From Burkholderiaceae bacterium (GTDB taxonomy: Bacteria > Patescibacteriota > Saccharimonadia > Saccharimonadales > AQU-01), in the NCBI GenBank assembly GCA_043788365.1, contig JAYVTZ010000002.1:1-49207 (forward strand): 49,207 nucleotides of DNA, in the 5' to 3' direction. Below are positions 1,215-29,025 of this stretch, one piece after another. Every line of letters starts with the position of its first letter. Position 1 is the stretch's first letter. The position numbers and the translations under genes are program-made. The notes below the pieces were generated by a model. That model was given only the letters and a program-made list of their open reading frames with translations. It made no database searches and was not told the DNA's origin.

Positions 1215-1904
1215 TTATAGTGTTTCTTCAGTTGGAGCTGGAGCAACTTCTGGTCTGTTCATTGCAAGACCAGCCAACACAACAACACCTGTGCCCAAAA
1301 CAATTGCTGCTGGTTTGAACCTGCTCAGAGTATCGTCACCTGTGTGTGGCAGGTTTCCGTTTGGCAAGCTCGAAGAAGTAGTCACTACTGGTGGCTGGGT
1401 TGTTGAGGTAGCCCCTGTAGGGGTGCTCGTTGACGTAGTCGAACCAGCAACTGTGCTAGTGGTCGTTGAAGAGGCTGGGACACTTGTTGACGAACTAGTA
1501 GTTGAAGATGCGTATGTATTTGGTGTGGTATCTTCGACTTCAGTGTCGTGTGTGTAAGTATCTGGAGTCGTGTTGCCTTCAGTGTCATCAGGATGAGTAT
1601 CTTCGACTTCAGTGTCGTGTGTGTAAGTATCCGGAGTCGTGTTGCCTTCAGTGTCATCAGGATGCGGGTAAGTGTTAGGCGTTGAGTCTGGAGCTGAAGA
1701 TCCGGTTTCGTGACCGTGACCATCTTTACCGTCGTGCTTACCAGATTTGTCCTGGTCATTGTCGCCGTTATAGCTATTGCCACCAGCTAAAACCTTACCA
1801 CCACCTAAAATACCAACACCAACTAGAGCTACGCCAGTTGCCTTGATAAAGCCTCTTCGGCTCATGCGGGCTTCAGAACCGTTTGATAATCCTTCTTTTG
1901 ACAT
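1215..1904 (-). CDS. Tat-signal, Ser/Thr-rich, LPXTG cell-wall-anchored surface protein
   Basis: N-terminal SRRGFIKATGVALVG (twin-arginine type signal). C-terminal LPHTG, then a hydrophobic helix and a charged tail (sortase sorting signal). GGAGA RBS before the ATG. Internal 23-aa tandem repeat. Confidence 0.8.
   Translation of the reverse strand: MSKEGLSNGSEARMSRRGFIKATGVALVGVGILGGGKVLAGGNSYNGDNDQDKSGKHDGKDGHGHETGSSAPDSTPNTYPHPDDTEGNTTPDTYTHDTEVEDTHPDDTEGNTTPDTYTHDTEVEDTTPNTYASSTTSSSTSVPASSTTTSTVAGSTTSTSTPTGATSTTQPPVVTTSSSLPNGNLPHTGDDTLSRFKPAAIVLGTGVVVLAGLAMNRPEVAPAPTEETL
1531..1664 (-). repeat. near-perfect 69-bp tandem repeat (2 copies) inside the LPXTG gene
   Basis: TCTTCGACTTCAGTGTCGTGTGTGTAAGTATC[T/C]GGAGTCGTGTTGCCTTCAGTGTCATCAGGATG starts at 1531 and again at 1600. 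I saw one mismatch. It encodes HPDDTEGNTTPDTYTHDTEVEDT twice. Confidence 0.9.
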
Positions 1905-5986: not shown

Positions 5987-6063
5987 TGGTGCGCCCGGAC
6001 GGATTCGAACCGCCGACTTTCTGTTCCGAAGACAGACGCTCTAATCCACTGAGCTACGGGCGC
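5987..6063 (-). tRNA. tRNA-Arg (anticodon TCG), CCA encoded
   Basis: Hand-folded cloverleaf: acceptor GCGCCCG/CGGGCGC, D arm GCTC..GAGC, anticodon stem TCTGT/ACAGA with loop CTTCGGA, T arm GGCGG-TTCGAAT-CCGTC, then ACCA. Confidence 0.9.
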
Positions 6064-12040: not shown

Positions 12041-13318
12041 ATGTCATATGAGTCCCGTAACATCGCTAGGGTTAAATCCCGAGGCACAACTGATTACACC
12101 AAAAACCGTTATGTGCGGCCATTGCCAAAACACGTATCTTATTCGGTATTGCGCTCTATATCAAAACAAAAACCGGAATCCAACTTCTATAGCGAAGAAA
12201 CCATAGTTAGTGGCCAAATTAAAACTGTCAGAAGAAAGAAGCTAGCTCTGCTTTTACCCGCCTATAACGAAGAACTGATTATTGCTACAACAATCAAGTC
12301 GGCTATTAAAGCCGGCCAGTTTAAAAAAGACATCTACGTCGTTGATGACCACTCTAGTGACAACACCCGTAAGGTTGCGGTGGGATTACTGGGTGAAGAC
12401 CAGGTGTTAACTGTCCAAAGAAGCGGCAAGGCCATAGCAGTCCAAAAAGCTATCAAGAAGTTCAAGATTAAAAAGAACTATGTTTGGTTACATATTGCCG
12501 ACGCTGATAGCATTTTTTCGCCCGATTATTTCAAAATTTATAAGAAAAAGTTAGACCCTAGGAAATATGCTGTAGCCGTTGGTTTTGTCCAGAGCATGCG
12601 TGGCAACTGGATAAGCACTTACCGAGCGCTATCATATACCTATAGCCAGCATGTTAATCGCCGAATTCAACACTACACCCAGACTATTTCTGTCTTCCCC
12701 GGTCCGATTACTTGCTTTAGAACTGATATCTTAAACAAATTGGACTTCGATACTAATAGTTTGACTGAAGATTTTGATATCACACTGCAAATACATCGTA
12801 AAAAACTCGGCCGAATCGTCTTCATTCCAAAAGCCATCAACTATACTCAAGACCCGCAAACTTTGAAAGACTTCATCAAGCAAAACCGTCGCTGGCAACG
12901 TGGCCTCTTCCAAGGCTTAAAGAAATACAAGATTGGTCGCCAGGCCCACTTGATTGACTTAAGTATCGGCTATCAACTGCTGTTAGTTCTGGTATATATG
13001 ATTCAACTGCTAGTGTTATTGCCAATGATTATTGGTATGACAGGTAATTGGATGCTAATTCCGGTTATCATTGCTGCCGATTTCGTTGTTAATAGTTTGA
13101 TTGCCTTATTCTCATCAATTGCTATCAGGCGCTGGAACTTAATCGGTGCAATGCCCTACTTCTACTTCTTAAGGTGGGTCGAGCTAATTATTTTTATCCA
13201 GTCATTTGGTGAAGTCATAATTCTCAAGAAATTTCAAACCGAAGAAACCAAAGGCTGGGATACTAGCGGTCGCCGCTACGCACTTAGCACTGAAGCTTTG
13301 CGCGACGTTACTGCCTAA
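12041..13318 (+). CDS. processive family-2 glycosyltransferase (membrane-embedded polysaccharide synthase, PgaC/IcaA/cellulose-synthase-like)
   Basis: GT2 core LLPAYNEE, DDHSSDNT and HIADADS, plus the QNRRWQRG (QxxRW) motif, followed by 3-4 C-terminal TM helices. Confidence 0.8.
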   Translation: MSYESRNIARVKSRGTTDYTKNRYVRPLPKHVSYSVLRSISKQKPESNFYSEETIVSGQIKTVRRKKLALLLPAYNEELIIATTIKSAIKAGQFKKDIYVVDDHSSDNTRKVAVGLLGEDQVLTVQRSGKAIAVQKAIKKFKIKKNYVWLHIADADSIFSPDYFKIYKKKLDPRKYAVAVGFVQSMRGNWISTYRALSYTYSQHVNRRIQHYTQTISVFPGPITCFRTDILNKLDFDTNSLTEDFDITLQIHRKKLGRIVFIPKAINYTQDPQTLKDFIKQNRRWQRGLFQGLKKYKIGRQAHLIDLSIGYQLLLVLVYMIQLLVLLPMIIGMTGNWMLIPVIIAADFVVNSLIALFSSIAIRRWNLIGAMPYFYFLRWVELIIFIQSFGEVIILKKFQTEETKGWDTSGRRYALSTEALRDVTA

Positions 13319-18644: not shown

Positions 18645-18719
18645 GCGGGTGTCGTACAACGGCCAGTATATGAGTTTTCCAAACTCAGGACGAGGGTTCG
18701 ATTCCCTCCACCCGCACCA
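18645..18719 (+). tRNA. tRNA-Gly (anticodon TCC), CCA encoded
   Basis: Acceptor GCGGGTG/CACCCGC, anticodon stem TGAGT/ACTCA with loop TTTCCAA, T arm GAGGG-TTCGATT-CCCTC. Confidence 0.9.
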
Positions 18720-18730
18720 ACAATAGGTAT

Positions 18731-18807
18731 GCCCCGGTAGCTCAGCGGATTAGAGCAATGGGCTTCTATCCCACAGGTCGGGGGTTCGATTCCCTCCCGG
18801 GGTACCA
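18731..18807 (+). tRNA. tRNA-Arg (anticodon TCT), CCA encoded
   Basis: Acceptor GCCCCGG/CCGGGGT, D arm GCTC..GAGC, anticodon loop CTTCTAT (one A-C mismatch at the top of the stem), T arm GGGGG-TTCGATT-CCCTC. Confidence 0.85.
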
Positions 18808-18988
18808 ATATGAAAACGCTCAGCTTCAGCTGGGCTTTTTATATTGGTCATCTCTGGGCGGGAGGGAATCGAACGGGAATGTCCTAGCGGACATTCCCCG
18901 CCCTTGGTCCGGCAACTAGTTGCCGGATGGCTATGGCCAGAAGTAATTTTCTTTTGGCCAGCTAGGTCGATTCCCTCCCGGGGTACCA
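18808..18988 (+). repeat. structured module U1 ending in an exact 22-nt copy of the tRNA-Arg(TCT) 3' end
   Basis: Terminator hairpin, GGTCATCTCTGGGCGGGAGGGAATCGAAC, then hairpins at 18875-18898, 18908-18927 and 18934-18960, then TCGATTCCCTCCCGGGGTACCA (18967-18988). Homologous to 20041-20216. Confidence 0.8.
18813..18841 (+). terminator. rho-independent terminator after tRNA-Arg(TCT)
   Basis: GCTCAGC-TTCA-GCTGGGC followed by TTTTT. The outer stem extends to pair ACCAATATGAAAA (including the tRNA CCA end) with TTTTTATATTGGT. Confidence 0.65.
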
Positions 18989-19223
18989 AATTAAAAGACT
19001 CGCCGTAAGGTGGGTCTTTTGATTTGGTTACTTGAGTGTATTGATCCCCCGACCGCGACAGCTTGCTGGCGCAAGGTCGGGAGTTCGCTATTCAGTCTAA
19101 TGCCCGAGATTTATCTCGGCGCATAGATTGAATATACCCTAGTATTCCCTCCCGTCAGGCGATGACCATGCCCAAAAGTAATTTTCTTCTGGCCAGCCAG
19201 GTCGATTCCCGCTTGGTGTTCCA
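18989..19223 (+). repeat. module U3: second terminator hairpin, pseudo tRNA-Arg 3' half with an insertion in the T-loop, and a diverged tRNA 3'-end copy
   Basis: AAAAGACTCGCC-GTAA-GGTGGGTCTTTT hairpin. AAGGTCGGGAGTTCG (19073-19087) and ATTCCCTCCCG (19144-19154) are separated by a 56-nt palindromic insert. A TAATTTT-loop hairpin (19170-19194) is followed by GGTCGATTCCCGCTTGGTGTTCCA (19200-19223). Confidence 0.7.
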
Positions 19224-19310
19224 ATTCAACACATCAGATTGTTCTAGTTCGAGCATTTCAAGCTTTTGACTACTTGTATCTGTTATTTAGTTCGAATCTT
19301 AATTGCTCCG

Positions 19311-19319
19311 TGCTAAGAT
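19311..19319 (+). promoter_or_regulatory. extended -10 promoter candidate (TGcTAAGAT) giving a leaderless methyltransferase mRNA
   Basis: TGCTAAGAT ends 6 nt before the ATG at 19326. There is no SD. The element is the same type as the one upstream of HTH-murA. Confidence 0.35.
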
Positions 19320-19325
19320 GGGTGC

Positions 19326-20018
19326 ATGCGAAAACAAAAGCAAATTTGGCTTTCAGAACATACCAATCAGACGACCTTACCAACGATGGCAAATGTAGAG
19401 CCCGCTAGTGGGGTAGTGTTATTCACAGATTGGCTAAACGATAACGGGATTAATTTTGTGGGCAACGCTGTAGATATTGGCTCTGGTAAAGGTCGTAATA
19501 GCGTCCATCTGGCTAAGCTTGGTTACGAAGTGTGGGGTTTGGAATATATAGAGCTAGCAGTTGATTCAGCGAAACAGTTAGCAGACAAAAATGATGTTGG
19601 TAGCAAAGTTCACTTTGAAATTTGTGAAGTTGATTCTGGCTGGAAAATTGAAAATAATTTCTTCGACATCGCTATAGATTCGTTCTCCAGTATCGATATC
19701 GAAACAAAAGAAGGTCGTGAAAAATGTAGAGACGAGATGTACCGTACGCTCAAATCCGGTGGATATGCACTCGTAACTGTCTGCTCATCGGATGATGAGT
19801 GGGAAAAGGAACTCATTTCAAAACATCCAGGTCCAGAGCCTAATAGTACGATTTGGCCACAGAATGGTAAGTTTCAAAAAGACTACGACGAATTAGAACT
19901 TAGAGAATTTTATAAAAAGTTCGAAGCTGTTGATTTAAAGAAAATTAGCAAACCAGCCTTCAAGTTAGAACGCGAAGGTACGGCTACCAACTTGTGGCTT
20001 GTGCTACGCAAAAAATAG
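19326..20018 (+). CDS. class I SAM-dependent methyltransferase
   Basis: Motif I VDIGSGKGRNSVHLA, an acidic residue at the end of beta-2 (GLE), and the post-I/II pattern typical of small-molecule methyltransferases (TehB/UbiE-like). Confidence 0.75.
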   Translation: MRKQKQIWLSEHTNQTTLPTMANVEPASGVVLFTDWLNDNGINFVGNAVDIGSGKGRNSVHLAKLGYEVWGLEYIELAVDSAKQLADKNDVGSKVHFEICEVDSGWKIENNFFDIAIDSFSSIDIETKEGREKCRDEMYRTLKSGGYALVTVCSSDDEWEKELISKHPGPEPNSTIWPQNGKFQKDYDELELREFYKKFEAVDLKKISKPAFKLEREGTATNLWLVLRKK

Positions 20019-20040
20019 TTCTAACCTCTGCAAGAATACT

Positions 20041-20216
20041 GTACCAATATGAAAACTCTCAGCTTTAGCTGGGCTTTTTATATTGGTCATCTCTTGGCGG
20101 GAGGGAATCGAACGGGAATGCATCAGCATGCATTCCCCGCCCTTGGCTTTTCAGCTGTGCCGAAAAGTTGTCATGGACGAATATAATTTTTATTCGTTCG
20201 ACAAGGTCGATTCCCT
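20041..20216 (+). repeat. structured module U2 (paralog of U1), starting with GTACCA and ending with a truncated tRNA-Arg T-arm copy
   Basis: The first ~80 nt are nearly identical to 18802-18881 (3 differences seen). The hairpins at 20114-20137, 20147-20167 and 20175-20199 have different sequences but the same positions. Ends with GGTCGATTCCCT (20205-20216). Confidence 0.8.
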
Positions 20217-20271
20217 TATTCTATAAAAATCCGACACGGATTGAGACAATATTCACTCTCAAAATAAAAAG

Positions 20272-20300
20272 TTGTTAAACTGCCCGTTTTAAGTTATAAT
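20272..20300 (+). promoter_or_regulatory. sigma70 promoter for the tRNA-His cassette
   Basis: TTGTTA (20272-20277), a 17-nt spacer, then TATAAT (20295-20300). Confidence 0.6.
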
Positions 20301-20447
20301 CACCCCTGTTCTTATTGTCTATTGTCTTATCCGAAATCACGAGAGGATTCGTGATTTCGAGAGGAGGAAGCTTTGTGGGGTTACTAATTTTGCGGAGCAA
20401 ATTTATTTTGTCGGCGAAATAGTAACTGCACAATTACATTCCGACGA
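20301..20447 (+). promoter_or_regulatory. conserved structured 5' leader of tRNA-His
   Basis: Hairpin GAAATCACG-AGAGGATT-CGTGATTTC (20333-20358), GAGAGGAGGAAGCTTTGT, the long-range stem GTTACTA/TAGTAAC, and the 17-mer ACAATTACATTCCGACG (20430-20446). Homologous to 28581-28778. Confidence 0.7.
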
Positions 20448-20525
20448 GGCGAGCTTAGCTCAGTTGGTTAGAGCGCCGGGTTGTGGTTCCGGAGGTCGTG
20501 GGTTCAATTCCCATAGTTCGCCCCA
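20448..20525 (+). tRNA. tRNA-His (anticodon GTG) with encoded G-1 and CCA
   Basis: G-1 then acceptor GCGAGCT/AGTTCGC, discriminator C, anticodon stem CCGGG/TCCGG with loop TTGTGGT, T arm GTGGG-TTCAATT-CCCAT. Confidence 0.9.
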
Positions 20526-20528
20526 TAT

Positions 20529-20555
20529 TAAAAAGTCTCACACAGTGAGGCTTTT
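20529..20555 (+). terminator. rho-independent terminator after tRNA-His
   Basis: AAAAAGTCTCAC-ACA-GTGAGGCTTTTT. The outer stem pairs GCCCCATATT (the tRNA 3' end) with AATATGGGC. Confidence 0.65.
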
Positions 20556-20705
20556 TAATATGGGCAAGCTCGTGGCATGGACTTCCACGACACGAGAGCT
20601 TTAGCTCACGTTAGTCGTGGCAATCAATAATTAGTCTTAGCCCCATAGCTCCAACGGAGCGGGCGGCTGGATTAATTTCACGCCGGTATTCCATAGTTCG
20701 CCCCA
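20556..20705 (+). other. tRNA-His trailer module ending in a duplicated tRNA-His 3' end
   Basis: Structured stretch, conserved AGCGGGCGGCTGGATTAAT (20658-20676), then ATTCCATAGTTCGCCCCA (20688-20705), compared with the tRNA's ATTCCCATAGTTCGCCCCA. Confidence 0.7.
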
Positions 20706-20708
20706 TTT

Positions 20709-20735
20709 AAAAAGTCTCAGAAAGTGAGGCTTTTT
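20709..20735. terminator. second terminator hairpin (near-copy of 20529-20555), also placed to terminate the convergent oxidoreductase gene
   Basis: AAAAAGTCTCAG-AAA-GTGAGGCTTTTT, lying 19 nt from the stop of 20754..21692. Confidence 0.6.
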
Positions 20736-20753
20736 AAATTTTAGACAACGTGA

Positions 20754-28551: not shown

Positions 28552-28580
28552 TATACAACAGAGGTATAAGTTGCTATAAT
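28552..28580 (+). promoter_or_regulatory. sigma70 promoter for the tRNA-Pro cassette
   Basis: TATAAT (28575-28580) with a weak -35 TATACA 17 nt upstream. The sequence downstream of the -10 aligns with the tRNA-His cassette (CCCTGTTC...). Confidence 0.5.
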
Positions 28581-28778
28581 AGCCCTGTTCAAATATCTTT
28601 TGTCCTATCCAATTTTGCGAGAGGATTCGCAAAATCATCAGGAAAAAGCTTTCTTGTTTTTCCGAAATTGAGAGAGGATTCTCAATTTCGAGAGGAGGAA
28701 TCTTTGTATGGTTTATAGTATTGTTGGTCAAACTTGTTTTGCCAACAATACAGAAACCATACAATTACATTCCGACGC
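28581..28778 (+). promoter_or_regulatory. conserved structured 5' leader of tRNA-Pro (two hairpin modules)
   Basis: Hairpins ATTTTGCG-AGAGGATT-CGCAAAAT (28612-28635) and GAAATTGAG-AGAGGATT-CTCAATTTC (28664-28689). GAGAGGAGGAATCTTTGT. Nested perfect stems at 28706-28714/28754-28762 and 28718-28727/28742-28751. The 17-mer ACAATTACATTCCGACG (28761-28777). Confidence 0.7.
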
Positions 28779-28854
28779 CGGGGTGTGGCGCAGTTGGTAG
28801 CGCGCGCGGTTTGGGACCGCGAGGTCGAAGGTTCGAGCCCTTTCACCCCGACCA
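28779..28854 (+). tRNA. tRNA-Pro (anticodon TGG), CCA encoded
   Basis: Acceptor CGGGGTG/CACCCCG, D arm GCGC..GCGC, anticodon stem CGCGG/CCGCG with loop TTTGGGA, T arm GAAGG-TTCGAGC-CCTTT. Confidence 0.9.
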
Positions 28855-28862
28855 TATAAAAA

Positions 28863-28885
28863 GGCCCACGAAAGTGGGCTTTTTT
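28863..28885 (+). terminator. rho-independent terminator after tRNA-Pro
   Basis: GCCCAC-GAAA-GTGGGC followed by TTTTTT. The extended stem pairs CCGACCATATAAAAAG (the tRNA 3' end) with TTTTTTATATGGTCGG. Confidence 0.65.
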
Positions 28886-29025
28886 ATATGGTCGGTGACG
28901 AGCTCCTACTTTCGACCCAAGATTTTTTGCCCTGCAAAAAAGACGGAAGGTCGAAGGTTCGGTCATCAGTCACAGGCCCCAGCGTAGCGGGCGCCTGGAT
29001 TGATGTGCGCATGCCCTTTCTCCCC
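28886..29025 (+). other. tRNA-Pro trailer module: pseudo tRNA-Pro 3' half split in the T-loop
   Basis: AGGTCGAAGGTTCG (28948-28961, identical to 28822-28835), a 51-nt insert containing AGCGGGCGCCTGGATTGAT (28986-29004), then GCCCTTTCTCCCC (29013-29025), compared with the tRNA's GCCCTTTCACCCC. Confidence 0.7.

Follow-up and report, generated by a model that had tools for sequence, protein, structure and literature searches.

The 5' flank of two unrelated tRNA genes, tRNA-Pro and tRNA-His, in the 49,207-nucleotide stretch of Saccharibacteria DNA analyzed here (the window) is a genuine structured RNA motif of ≈130-190 nt. We document below the sequence motif, fold, distribution, position, and modularity of this leader, which recurs directly upstream of many different tRNA genes, and of tmRNA genes, in Saccharibacteria. 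The sequences 3' of the same tRNAs, which we call trailers, are a phenomenon separate from the leader and are treated separately.

Organization of the leader upstream of tRNA-Pro and tRNA-His

The leader spans 28596-28778 at tRNA-Pro and 20318-20447 at tRNA-His, and its parts follow each other in the order hairpin with the invariant loop GAGAGGAUUC, single-stranded GAGAGGAGG box, long second hairpin, and CCGACG tail. All features described here lie on the + strand. At tRNA-Pro(UGG) (28779..28854), transcription would start from a consensus-matching promoter, TATACA-17-TATAAT with a TG upstream of the -10 element (28552..28580), which has a homologue in front of the orthologous tRNA-Pro of the related locus L102. 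The promoter is followed by the C-rich discriminator and start region AGCCCTGTTC (28581..28590), part of a CACCYCTGTT motif that directly adjoins the tRNA in genes without the leader. Module 1 of the Pro leader (28612..28648) contains hairpin P1a, with the decamer GAGAGGATTC at 28619-28628, and then the degenerate box CATCAGGAAAAAG. Module 2 (28663..28698) contains hairpin P1b (28663-28690; decamer at 28672-28681) and the box GAGAGGAGG (28690-28698). The long bipartite hairpin P2 (28694..28776), in whose outer helix the 3' end of the box pairs with the NNCC before GACG, leads into a single-stranded tail of CCGACG plus C(-1) (28772..28778) that extends up to the presumed RNase P cleavage site. 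tRNA-His(GUG) (20449..20525), with an encoded G-1 at 20448, is preceded by the promoter TTGTTA-17-TATAAT and the discriminator CACCCCTGTTC (20272..20311; promoter at 20272-20300), by hairpin P1 (20332-20359; decamer at 20341-20350) with the box GAGAGGAGG at 20359-20367 (together 20332..20367), and by P2 (20363-20445) with the tail CCGACGA at 20441-20447 (together 20363..20447).

A first-pass annotation of this DNA had listed promoters, AGAGGATT hairpins, an SD-like box, a long hairpin, and a 17-mer at both tRNAs, and had proposed a tandem duplication of the hairpin in the Pro leader. Sequence inspection and counts bear this out. There is one AGAGGATT-loop hairpin in the His leader compared to two in the Pro leader, and in 49 kb there are exactly two occurrences of the box GAGAGGAGG and two of the 17-mer ACAATTACATTCCGACG, compared to 0.09 and 0.18 expected, respectively. 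The 120-nt leader cores of His and Pro are 75% identical, and their local alignment score is 60 compared to 10.1 ± 1.8 for shuffles, so the similarity of the leaders holds under formal alignment statistics, whereas that of the trailers is limited to 44 nt (see below). A covariance model scored the His and Pro leaders at 124 and 128 bits, respectively, and found no other copies in the window, where only these two of the five tRNA genes carry the leader. The Logan contig L001 is identical to the window.

A leader peptide encoded after the SD-like box was rejected. Downstream of the box, His and Pro have different reading frames, which lack conservation and continue into the tRNA; substitutions are compensatory and track helix pairing rather than codons, and the box is not used to initiate a conserved ORF.

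Covariation supports the leader fold on the tRNA-sense strand

RNAalifold analysis of 17 leader copies gave 36 base pairs, 27 of which show compensatory (double) changes. Paired cells amounted to 96.4% compared to 75.3% in shuffles, and the covariation score was 0.627 compared to 0.209 in shuffles and at most 0.13 in slid controls; this score lay above all 500 shuffles, and none of the 500 attained the observed values. The large excess of G.U pairs (≈24 cells) over A.C pairs (≈6 cells) in the alignment assigns the structure to the tRNA-sense strand. Folding each of the two leaders as a single sequence gave the same helices (z = -6.1 and -8.6), and compensatory changes are present in the long hairpin P2 of the His and Pro leaders. 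The loop and box sequences are invariant in ≈45 leader copies, and the last two G of the box GAGAGGAGG sit paired in the outer helix of P2. The pairing statistics and the invariant loop and box support the strong functional constraint that had been proposed for the flanks, as far as the leader is concerned.

Two further pairings were considered and rejected. The P1 loop could base-pair with the T-loop of the tRNA behind it (GGAUUC/GAAUCC) where this is of the Gln type, but not at His or Pro, so that such a contact cannot be general. Between the boxes and the CACCYCUGUU start region, at most 5 bp can form, and these show no covariation.

The leader is a Saccharibacteria-specific structured RNA found before tRNA and tmRNA genes

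We found ≈45 further leader copies in Saccharibacteria MAGs and metagenomes, nearly all of them directly 5' of a tRNA or tmRNA gene. In 324 kb, the covariance model returned 55 matches. Exact-pattern scans yielded 19 true copies from GTDB genomes, of which nearly all carry the label Saccharibacteria or Saccharimonadales, and ≈25 additional copies from metagenomes; frequencies are biased, because the loci were ascertained via the motif itself. The leader occurs 5' of at least 17 different tRNA species and of tmRNA, the latter in L072, where the tmRNA was confirmed by Rfam, and in L083. In >40 cases the leader tail stops 1 or 4 nt short of the mature 5' end. At one locus (L076) the leader separates tRNA-Ala from tRNA-Ile, and this interval contains no promoter.

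The leader is placed almost solely in one orientation, between the promoter and the 5' end of the tRNA or tmRNA. The exceptions are two leader-like copies that lie inverted, directly against the CCA end (L079, 6353-6468; L044, 2051-2166). No copy was found in other intergenic DNA across the ≈390 kb scanned. Likewise, the leader pattern had no match in IMG/VR viral contigs, which gives no sign of a phage origin.

Exchange of the leader between tRNA genes and its gain and loss among related species

The leader module can be exchanged between RNase P substrates, and related species have acquired or lost it. In three syntenic relatives (L102, L104, and L106), the Pro, His, and Arg orthologues have no leader, which implies that no particular tRNA requires it. 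Synteny with these relatives was anchored on YmdB in place of the 199-aa protein encoded upstream of tRNA-Pro, for which a homologue search returned only the protein itself. Conversely, the leaders of a tRNA-Met (L066) and a tRNA-Lys (L085) on one contig are 98% identical, and this identity ends at tRNA position +1. Near-identical leaders before different tRNAs imply that the module can be exchanged. The Pro leader of the window is 82% identical to Arg, Lys, and Met leaders of other genomes, compared to 75% for the His leader of its own genome. Homogenization of leaders within a genome is not general (identities of 75%, 66%, and 68%, and one pair at 98%). Tandem leader arrays contain up to five modules. 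The modular carrier suggested in the first-pass annotation, into which different tRNAs are placed, is supported for the leader by its range of tRNA species, its absence from the relatives' orthologues, and the 98%-identical copy at Lys and Met.

Trailers are partial tRNA copies and are separate from the leader

The window had been thought to contain two homologous cassettes of ≈470 nt. This holds for the 5' leader, whereas the trailers of Pro and His share a layout and a single 44-nt hairpin. At tRNA-Pro, the GACCA end is part of a palindromic terminator (GACCATATAAAAAGGCCCAC / GTGGGCTTTTTTATATGGTC; 28849..28893) that can also be read on the minus strand. The trailer behind it (28894..29012) contains a copy of the variable loop, the 5' strand of the T-stem, and TTCG (28945-28962), has a pseudo T-loop that a long hairpin (28962-29006) interrupts, and is followed by the pseudo 3' end GCCCTTTCTCCCC (29013..29025), a decayed copy of the 3' strands of the T-stem and acceptor stem. 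At tRNA-His, palindromic terminator 1, which includes the CCCA end (20520..20565), is followed by a trailer (20566..20687) with a degenerate copy of the tRNA-His 5' acceptor and D-arm (GAGAGCTTTAGCTCACGTTAGT) and the hairpin common to the Pro trailer (20634-20676), and then by the pseudo 3' end ATTCCATAGTTCGCCCCA and terminator 2 (together 20688..20741), which is 94% identical to terminator 1. Several earlier observations are thus confirmed: the CCA-pairing terminators are palindromes that include the ACCA end, pseudo 3' ends are present at both tRNAs (20688-20705 and 29013-25), and a second terminator occurs only at the His copy.

BLAST gave no match between the His and Pro trailers. Their sole significant similarity is the 44-nt stretch, which folds as a long hairpin in both (score of 20 compared to 8.8 ± 1.55, reached by none of 1000 shuffles). 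This lack of homology over the trailer length implies that the unit consists of a homologous 5' leader and 3' trailers of similar architecture. The view of leader and trailer as one cassette is also contradicted by other tRNAs, where trailers are present with or without the leader and the two occur separately. When the five trailers of the window were compared by BLAST to all loci, the His and Pro trailers matched nothing, and the module at tRNA-Arg(UCU) alone gave matches, to its own copies and to L043.

Nor are the trailers foreign to the tRNAs that they follow. They are largely partial copies of the tRNA itself, in which inverted and direct partial copies of the tRNA's own 3' end surround hairpin modules. 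A downstream copy of the tRNA's own 3' 16 nt was found for 22 of 61 tRNAs, mostly 139-188 nt away. The inserts of 125-180 nt contain no ORF, and conserved structured trailer cores recur 3' of different tRNAs in different genomes. In addition, interrupted tRNA copies with ≈90-nt inserts in the T- or D-loop adjoin an intact copy.

Repeats of the tRNA 3' end accumulate as an array at tRNA-Arg(UCU) (18808-20225). Its trailer module (18850..18988) folds as a four-way junction (-78.3 kcal/mol; z = -7.3), whose closing helix pairs an antisense piece of the T-loop with the pseudo 3' end. A second copy of the module (20089..20225) has kept the hairpin pairing through compensatory changes. This is the only array that holds a gene: a methyltransferase gene is flanked by two direct repeats of 106 nt with 91% identity (18802-18907 and 20041-20146). 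We read the trailers as footprints of recombination or insertion aimed at the T-loop or 3' end.

The leader boxes are complementary to the 16S rRNA tail

The purine boxes of the leader are complementary to the 3' tail of 16S rRNA (CCUCCUUUCU; tail sequence GGAUUACCUCCUUUCU, taken from L076), and GAGAGGAGG pairs with CCUCCUUUC over 9 bp with one G.U. The box:16S tail duplexes (-15.9 and -19.5 kcal/mol) are the strongest in the whole window, compared to -12.1 kcal/mol for the best SD of a gene and a gene median of -3.9 kcal/mol, which equals background. Most genes in the window have no SD. The invariant GAGAGG needs one G.U with the 16S tail, where GAAAGG would match perfectly, and the retention of GAGAGG over the perfect complement hints at a different, sequence-specific partner. 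RNase Y is encoded in the genome, implying RNA decay machinery of the Gram-positive type.

Comparison with known RNA families

At Rfam 15 gathering thresholds, only tRNA, tmRNA, and 16S rRNA passed in the window and 17 loci, and in the window itself only tRNA did. At E ≤ 10, the five leader and trailer regions gave only sub-threshold chance matches, the best of which were BjrC174 (27.2 bits; gathering threshold of 45) and TD-2 (26.3 bits; gathering threshold of 48.7). Literature searches found descriptions of neither the leader nor the trailers. These searches agree with the statement of the first-pass annotation that no described bacterial system has such a layout, and we know of no conserved, structured 5' leader that is shared by bacterial tRNA genes.

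The STAB-SD is a 5' mRNA stabilizer of cry3A of Bacillus thuringiensis and of other Gram-positive 5' UTRs. It is thought to bind the 30S subunit and to block 5'-3' decay by RNase J1 (PMC4113751). Like the STAB-SD, the leader has an SD-like purine box in an untranslated 5' region, where this complement of the 16S 3' end does not initiate a conserved ORF. Unlike the STAB-SD, the leader precedes tRNA and tmRNA genes rather than mRNAs, and its box lies inside a conserved multi-helix fold, is tandemly repeated, and is presumably removed by RNase P.

T-boxes precede aminoacyl-tRNA synthetase and amino-acid genes and bind a specific tRNA via a specifier codon and the T-box bulge. The leader resembles them as a long structured leader RNA tied to tRNA. 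However, it is found in front of tRNA genes rather than of synthetase or amino-acid genes, serves at least 17 tRNA species in the same form, and lacks a terminator/antiterminator switch; T-box gave no match in Rfam at E ≤ 10. T-box, antitermination, and riboswitch readings were rejected; no terminator follows the fold, and for rrn boxA/boxB-like antitermination, the boxA consensus is not visible by eye in the sequence.

Possible functions and origins of the leader and trailers

We favor, with about even confidence, the interpretation that the leader is an RNA released by RNase P that docks 30S subunits or a protein and is exchangeable among tRNA and tmRNA genes. The leader would be transcribed from the tRNA's own promoter, within the precursor, as one to five tandem modules (a GAGAGGAUUC hairpin and a single-stranded GAGAGGAGG), a variable-length stabilizing hairpin, and the tail. 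RNase P would cut it off at the mature 5' end of the tRNA or tmRNA. We infer this removal from position, because the motif always ends there in a short single-stranded CCGACG(N) tail. By analogy, the boxes may dock 30S subunits as the STAB-SD does, or may bind a protein that recognizes GGA or purine-rich sequence, and this putative docking could protect or regulate the precursor. Alternatively, the released leader may be an abundant decoy RNA whose production exploits the tRNA promoter and RNase P. Arguing against this interpretation are the dispensability of the leader in the relatives, the G.U that the invariant box needs with the 16S tail, the pairing of the last two G of the box within P2, and the lack of an SD at most genes of the window. 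[quoted passage not shown]

A possible but less probable explanation is that leader and trailer modules belong to the REPIN or MITE type of selfish, non-autonomous DNA repeat and are moved in trans as folded single strands by a RAYT, an IS200-like Y1 transposase, or a recombinase that targets tRNA ends or loops, with the hairpins kept for transposition. Like REP and REPIN sequences, the modules are short, hairpin-forming intergenic repeats with stems kept by compensatory change; unlike REPINs, which are scattered through intergenic DNA, they are tied to tRNA termini. The variable presence of the leader at orthologous tRNA genes, the 98%-identical copy with sharp boundaries at two different tRNAs, the inverted copies abutting the CCA end, and the interrupted tRNA copies beside intact ones are all consistent with mobility, and the precise junctions with tRNA ends fit equally well. 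Moreover, the Gly-Arg-His cluster acquires a GIY-YIG gene, a weak HNH-like ORF, or a methyltransferase gene, depending on the genome, and a Y1_Tnp/RAYT-like gene is present in the related locus L106 (13485-14099; Y1_Tnp, 36 bits). By contrast, the window contains neither that gene nor any other transposase, integrase, or recombinase gene or domain. The nearly constant orientation between promoter and tRNA or tmRNA 5' end, the absence of copies from the other intergenic DNA scanned, and the single-stranded linker of the length required by RNase P also argue against a purely selfish repeat, as does the invariance, across deeply diverged copies, of a loop and a box that is complementary to 16S rRNA. 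Mobility and an RNA function of the leader are not mutually exclusive.

For the trailers, we consider it unlikely that they are attL/attR scars of kilobase-sized elements that a tyrosine integrase inserted into the T-loop and that were later nearly all deleted. As at the tRNA-gene sites of islands and prophages, a direct repeat of the tRNA 3' part flanks the insert and starts inside the T-loop, and at tRNA-Arg(UCU) such 106-nt repeats bracket the methyltransferase gene. However, the integrase gene and element body expected between such repeats are absent from the window. Unlike island and prophage sites, the repeats are only ≈125-180 nt apart and enclose strongly folded sequence of recurring families, and each trailer also has an inverted copy of the tRNA 3' end. 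Random deletion would not yield the narrow spacing between tRNA end and copy that is seen in most of the 22 cases, nor does this explanation fit the recurrence of structured cores behind different tRNAs in different genomes or a pseudo T-arm that lacks the complete core site expected at attR.

It is quite doubtful that the leader arrays are a Csr/Rsm-like sponge, in which GGA motifs titrate a putative CsrA-like translational regulator and the tRNA is merely a 3'-end processing signal. In the leader, one to five tandem hairpins with A-GGA-U loops alternate with single-stranded AGGAGG, and the RNA is multicopy with strong promoters, much as CsrB, RsmY, and RsmZ have variable numbers of alternating hairpin-loop and single-stranded GGA motifs and strong expression. 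Unlike these RNAs, the leader does not form a separate gene ending in a terminator and is fused 5' of RNase P substrates. No CsrA was seen among the ORFs of the window that encode at least 100 aa, a cut-off above the ≈60-75 aa of CsrA. The invariant sequence GAGAGGAUUC exceeds the CsrA core in length, and the CsrB, CsrC, and RsmX/Y/Z models gave no match (the best, rsmX, reached 16.8 bits on the opposite strand compared to a gathering threshold of 56). Finally, local paralogous duplication of one tRNA flank, or chance, might be suggested by the presence of the leader at only two tRNA genes of the window and is refuted by the further copies before many different tRNAs and by the covariation, and the Pro leader is closer to leaders of other genomes than to the His leader of its own.

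Implications for Saccharibacteria

Saccharibacteria (TM7) are ultrasmall episymbionts whose RNA biology is almost unexplored. A covariation-supported leader before tRNA and tmRNA genes contrasts with T-boxes, which front protein genes. If the leader regulates or stabilizes RNase P substrates, it would add an extra layer of control to tRNA supply. If the function instead lies in the leader after its release, tRNA promoters and RNase P would be making an RNA that presents the strongest anti-SD complements in an SD-poor genome. Trailers, interrupted tRNA copies, and variation between orthologous loci mark the tRNA genes of this lineage as hot spots of small structured repeat modules, which bears on the annotation of tRNAs in MAGs and on the targeting of tRNA genes by mobile DNA.

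A structured leader precedes tRNA-His and tRNA-Pro

ARAGORN and Rfam called five tRNA genes in the window: tRNA-Arg(UCG) (5987-6063, minus strand), tRNA-Gly(UCC) (18645-18719), tRNA-Arg(UCU) (18731-18807), tRNA-His(GUG) (20449-20525), and tRNA-Pro(UGG) (28779-28854). Their neighbours are ordinary chromosomal genes, including those for a Mur ligase, MurB, SHMT, a MurA-like protein, a sortase, a P-type ATPase, a two-component system, YmdB, RNase Y, TsaE/TsaB, RecA/RecX, a type IV pilus, and RuvB; no integrase or transposase gene is among the window genes. Because the YmdB homologues and every sequence related to the leader derive from Saccharibacteria/Patescibacteria MAGs, we assign the window to a Saccharibacterium (TM7). 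Elsewhere in the window, an ORF (1215-1904, minus strand) without a Pfam match contains a near-perfect 69-nt tandem duplication (1528-1664, 99% identical).

The first-pass annotation had placed tRNA-His and tRNA-Pro in homologous cassettes, and the 5' parts that it listed were all recovered. Each cassette begins with a consensus promoter (20272-20300 for His; 28552-28580 for Pro), and a hairpin with loop AGAGGATT occurs once before tRNA-His and twice before tRNA-Pro, with the decamer GAGAGGATTC at 20341, 28619, and 28672 and nowhere else in the 49 kb. The SD-like box GAGAGGAGG (inside TTTCGAGAGGAGGAA) and the 17-mer ACAATTACATTCCGACG each occur exactly twice. The 120-nt leader cores (20327-20446 and 28658-28777) are 75% identical, with a local alignment score of 60 compared to 10.1 ± 1.8 in dinucleotide shuffles, and the two tRNAs have nothing in common beyond generic tRNA features. 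Behind each tRNA, a palindromic terminator follows directly, with a stem that reaches into the ACCA end, and is succeeded by 120-125 nt of folded sequence, the trailer (z = -3.5 for His and -3.9 for Pro). The pseudo 3' ends are copies of the T-stem 3' strand plus the acceptor 3' strand (20688-20705 for His; 29013-29025 for Pro), and a second terminator, 94% identical to the first, lies behind the His copy only. Thus, the claim of homologous flanks holds for the 5' flank; the 3' flanks are not homologous overall and have only their architecture in common. BLAST gave no match between the His and Pro trailers, and their sole significant similarity is a stretch of 44 nt (score 20 compared to 8.8 ± 1.55; reached in 0 of 1000 shuffles) that folds as a long hairpin in both, with one compensatory U-A to C-G change.

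Distribution, structure, and position of the leader

The pattern GAGAGGATTC-N5-14-GAGAGGAGG was searched for in 185,579 species-representative genomes. Among the 61 stretches found, 19 are real copies, with an 8-nt gap and a complementary stem, and almost all of these are labelled Saccharibacteria or Saccharimonadales; the remaining stretches are chance matches without a hairpin. The same pattern found ~25 additional true copies in JGI metagenomes and none in IMG/VR. A covariance model gave 55 matches in 324 kb of Saccharibacteria sequence, and the sampled loci were collected through the leader motif itself, so that this sample is biased. Within the window, the model matched nothing other than the leaders of His (124 bits) and Pro (128 bits).

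In 17 copies, the leader measures 119-122 nt from 14 nt upstream of the decamer through CGACG. RNAalifold folds it into an 11-bp P1 hairpin, a single-stranded AGAGGA, and a long P2 hairpin, in whose outer helix the last GG of the box and two variable nucleotides pair with NNCC ahead of GACG. Double compensatory changes occur in 27 of 36 pairs. In a MAFFT alignment, 96.4% of the cells at paired positions can pair, compared to 75.3% in shuffles, and the covariation score of 0.627 (0.209 in shuffles) was reached by none of 500 shuffles; when pairing partners were slid as a control, pairing fell to 30-47%. G.U pairs are far commoner than A.C, which implies that the structure forms on the tRNA-sense strand. 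Leaders contain one to five copies of the hairpin-plus-box module (two for Pro in the window, four in L066, and five in L091; L-numbers denote related loci from Saccharibacteria genomes or metagenome contigs), and P2 varies from ~10 nt (L075) to ~70 nt, usually with a CUUG tetraloop cap.

The distance from the end of the CCGACG tail to the mature 5' end is 1 nt, sometimes 4 nt, in more than 40 cases. The genes that follow encode tRNA-Gln (CUG, UUG), initiator and elongator Met, Lys, Glu, Ser (GCU, GGA), Arg (UCU, GCG, CCU, UCG), Asp, His, Pro, Ile, and Gly, and in L072 and L083 the leader directly precedes tmRNA (68.8 bits in Rfam for L072). These tRNAs and tmRNA are all RNase P substrates. 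In L076, where no promoter separates tRNA-Ala from tRNA-Ile, a leader lies 19 nt past the former and directly before the latter, which implies that the leader is part of the transcript and not of a promoter. In these genomes, tRNA genes without a leader read TATAAT-CACCYCTGTT-tRNA; where there is a leader, it separates this C-rich start region from position +1. The C(A)CCYCTGTT motif accompanies stable-RNA promoters (L076 3990-4060, minus strand, and tRNA promoters of many loci). At tRNA genes it stands past the -10 element, and at the 16S gene of L076 it stands between -35 and -10. It may serve this lineage specifically, as a discriminator or as a regulatory element.

Leader modularity across tRNA genes

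Syntenic loci were retrieved via YmdB homologues (72-78% identity). L102, L104, and L106 hold the orthologous Pro, His, Arg(UCU), and Gly genes, and the covariance model found no leader in them at E <= 1. In L104, the tRNA-Pro and tRNA-His genes are leaderless; in L106, an intact tRNA-Pro gene comes after an interrupted copy. L102, the nearest of the syntenic relatives, retains the Pro promoter and first ~25 transcribed nucleotides of the window, followed by a different leader of ~150 nt. This leader (12741-12910, minus strand) ends in CTCTGTTCT directly before tRNA-Pro, and a similar CACTTCGTTC occurs past the -10 element; the arrangement resembles that of an insertion with a duplicated start region at its two ends. 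Two leaders on the same metagenomic contig, those of tRNA-Met (L066) and tRNA-Lys (L085), are 98% identical from the module start to the last nucleotide before +1. The Pro leader of the window is 82% identical to Arg, Lys, and Met leaders elsewhere and 75% to the His leader of its own genome (mean between genomes, 71%), so that leader lineages are not tied to tRNA identity. Judged from these sequence comparisons, the leader is modular and dispensable. A selfish repeat is a live rival to an RNA function of the leader, and both may hold together.

Trailers and signs of mobility at tRNA ends

A downstream copy of the last 16 nt was found for 22 of 61 tRNAs with enough flank in this biased sample, mostly 139-188 nt away; operon-internal tRNAs have neither leader nor trailer. 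Trailer copies accompany 16 of 33 tRNAs with a leader and 6 of 28 without, which implies that the two elements are separable. In the common plan, the terminator palindrome runs on into the acceptor 3' strand and T-arm, copied in inverted orientation and true to the T-loop variant of the tRNA concerned; one to three hairpins follow, and then a direct copy that starts in mid T-loop. The inverted copies could have arisen without selection, through template switching that extended the palindrome. The Arg(UCU) trailer folds as a four-way junction closed by its inverted and its direct copy (-78.3 kcal/mol, z = -7.3), and a second copy of this trailer (20089-20225) keeps all three hairpins through compensatory changes, together with the loop TAATTTT, which recurs in L043.

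The Arg(UCU) array (18808-20230) consists of trailer 1 (18850-18988), trailer 2 (19010-19225), a gene for a 230-aa SAM-dependent methyltransferase (19326-20018), and a repeat of ACCAA, terminator, and trailer (20041-20225). Direct repeats of 106 nt (18802-18907 and 20041-20146, 91% identical) bracket the methyltransferase gene, which thus looks like cargo captured between two modules. In the family to which the Pro trailer belongs, an insert comes after an initial GGTTCGG, made up of the T-stem 5' strand and TTCG; relatives lie behind fMet (L091, L007), Gln (L030), and Ile (L076). A third family, with inserts of ~90 nt (GTGAGAAATGCC...GCAAGG...GGGGTCGC-loop-GTGAC), not seen in the window, interrupts partial tRNA copies in the T-loop or D-loop next door to an intact copy (L086 4760-5010, L051 4170-4445, L106 11074-11426, and also L023, L100, and L044). 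These interrupted copies comprise positions 1-53, or 1 to about 16, before the structured insert, and lie 20-70 nt upstream of the intact copy of the same tRNA; the leader is retained in several cases.

In L079 (6353-6468) and L044 (2051-2166), a plus-strand leader-like element, inverted relative to a minus-strand tRNA, abuts the CCA end of that tRNA precisely with its CGACG end. Both elements have a GC-rich P1 stem, the loop of the other leaders, and a degenerate box; tRNA-Ser of L079 is thus flanked by inverted leader copies. The Gly-Arg-His cluster of the window includes the methyltransferase gene, and the syntenic clusters of related genomes contain or lie near selfish-type genes, all on the minus strand, for a RAYT-like/IS200 Y1 transposase (L106 13485-14099, 36 bits; near the cluster), a GIY-YIG nuclease (L104 13896-14312, 47.5 bits), and an 84-aa ORF with a weak HNH-like motif below the Pfam cut-off (L106 16902-17156). 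Together, the trailers, interrupted copies, inverted leaders, and selfish-type genes point to tRNA loops and termini as targets of recombination or insertion. The trailers resemble REPIN-like hairpin repeats and tRNA att repeats, yet lack defining features of both, and a reading as classical att scars does not agree with the narrow sizes, the conserved cores, and the lack of an integrase.

Purine boxes and a proposed function

The 16S rRNA 3' end of L076 is GGAUUACCUCCUUUCU. The box GAGAGGAGG could form 9 bp with CCUCCUUUC, one of them G.U, and the loop GAGAGGA could form 7 bp with UCCUUUC. For the boxes, the calculated duplexes reach -15.9 (His) and -19.5 (Pro) kcal/mol, and for the loops about -10. 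Among 34 gene start regions, the best value is -12.1 and the median is -3.9, equal to the window background; no site in the window has a lower energy than the Pro box. The two tRNA leaders are the strongest anti-SD complements in the window, where most genes are without a Shine-Dalgarno sequence. Many genes have TATAAT directly ahead of the start codon, which suggests that mRNAs here are largely SD-less or leaderless.

The first-pass annotation knew of no bacterial system of this layout, and none emerged for the leader: Rfam 15 has no family for it at any threshold tried, and no description was found in the literature searched. It is not a T-box, a member of Csr/Rsm, or an Rfam family. Csr/Rsm sponges likewise alternate GGA-bearing loops with GGA-bearing single strands; the Csr/Rsm Rfam families gave no match to the leader. 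The nearest known analogue is STAB-SD, whose SD-like box is not translated, binds the 3' end of 16S rRNA, and blocks RNase J1 (PMC4113751); binding by the leader is predicted from sequence. The encoded RNase Y fits an RNA decay machinery of the Gram-positive type. In its working, the leader would most resemble a STAB-SD or decoy element, a likeness short of membership. The invariance of the box as GAGAGG, though GAAAGG pairs perfectly, counts against a purely anti-SD explanation. In our view, the leader is a new class of RNA motif with an inferred function: as we read it, it would be co-transcribed with the tRNA and cut off the precursor by RNase P, and its purine boxes would act as docking sites, most likely for the 30S anti-SD tail, to the benefit of either the precursor or the released leader.
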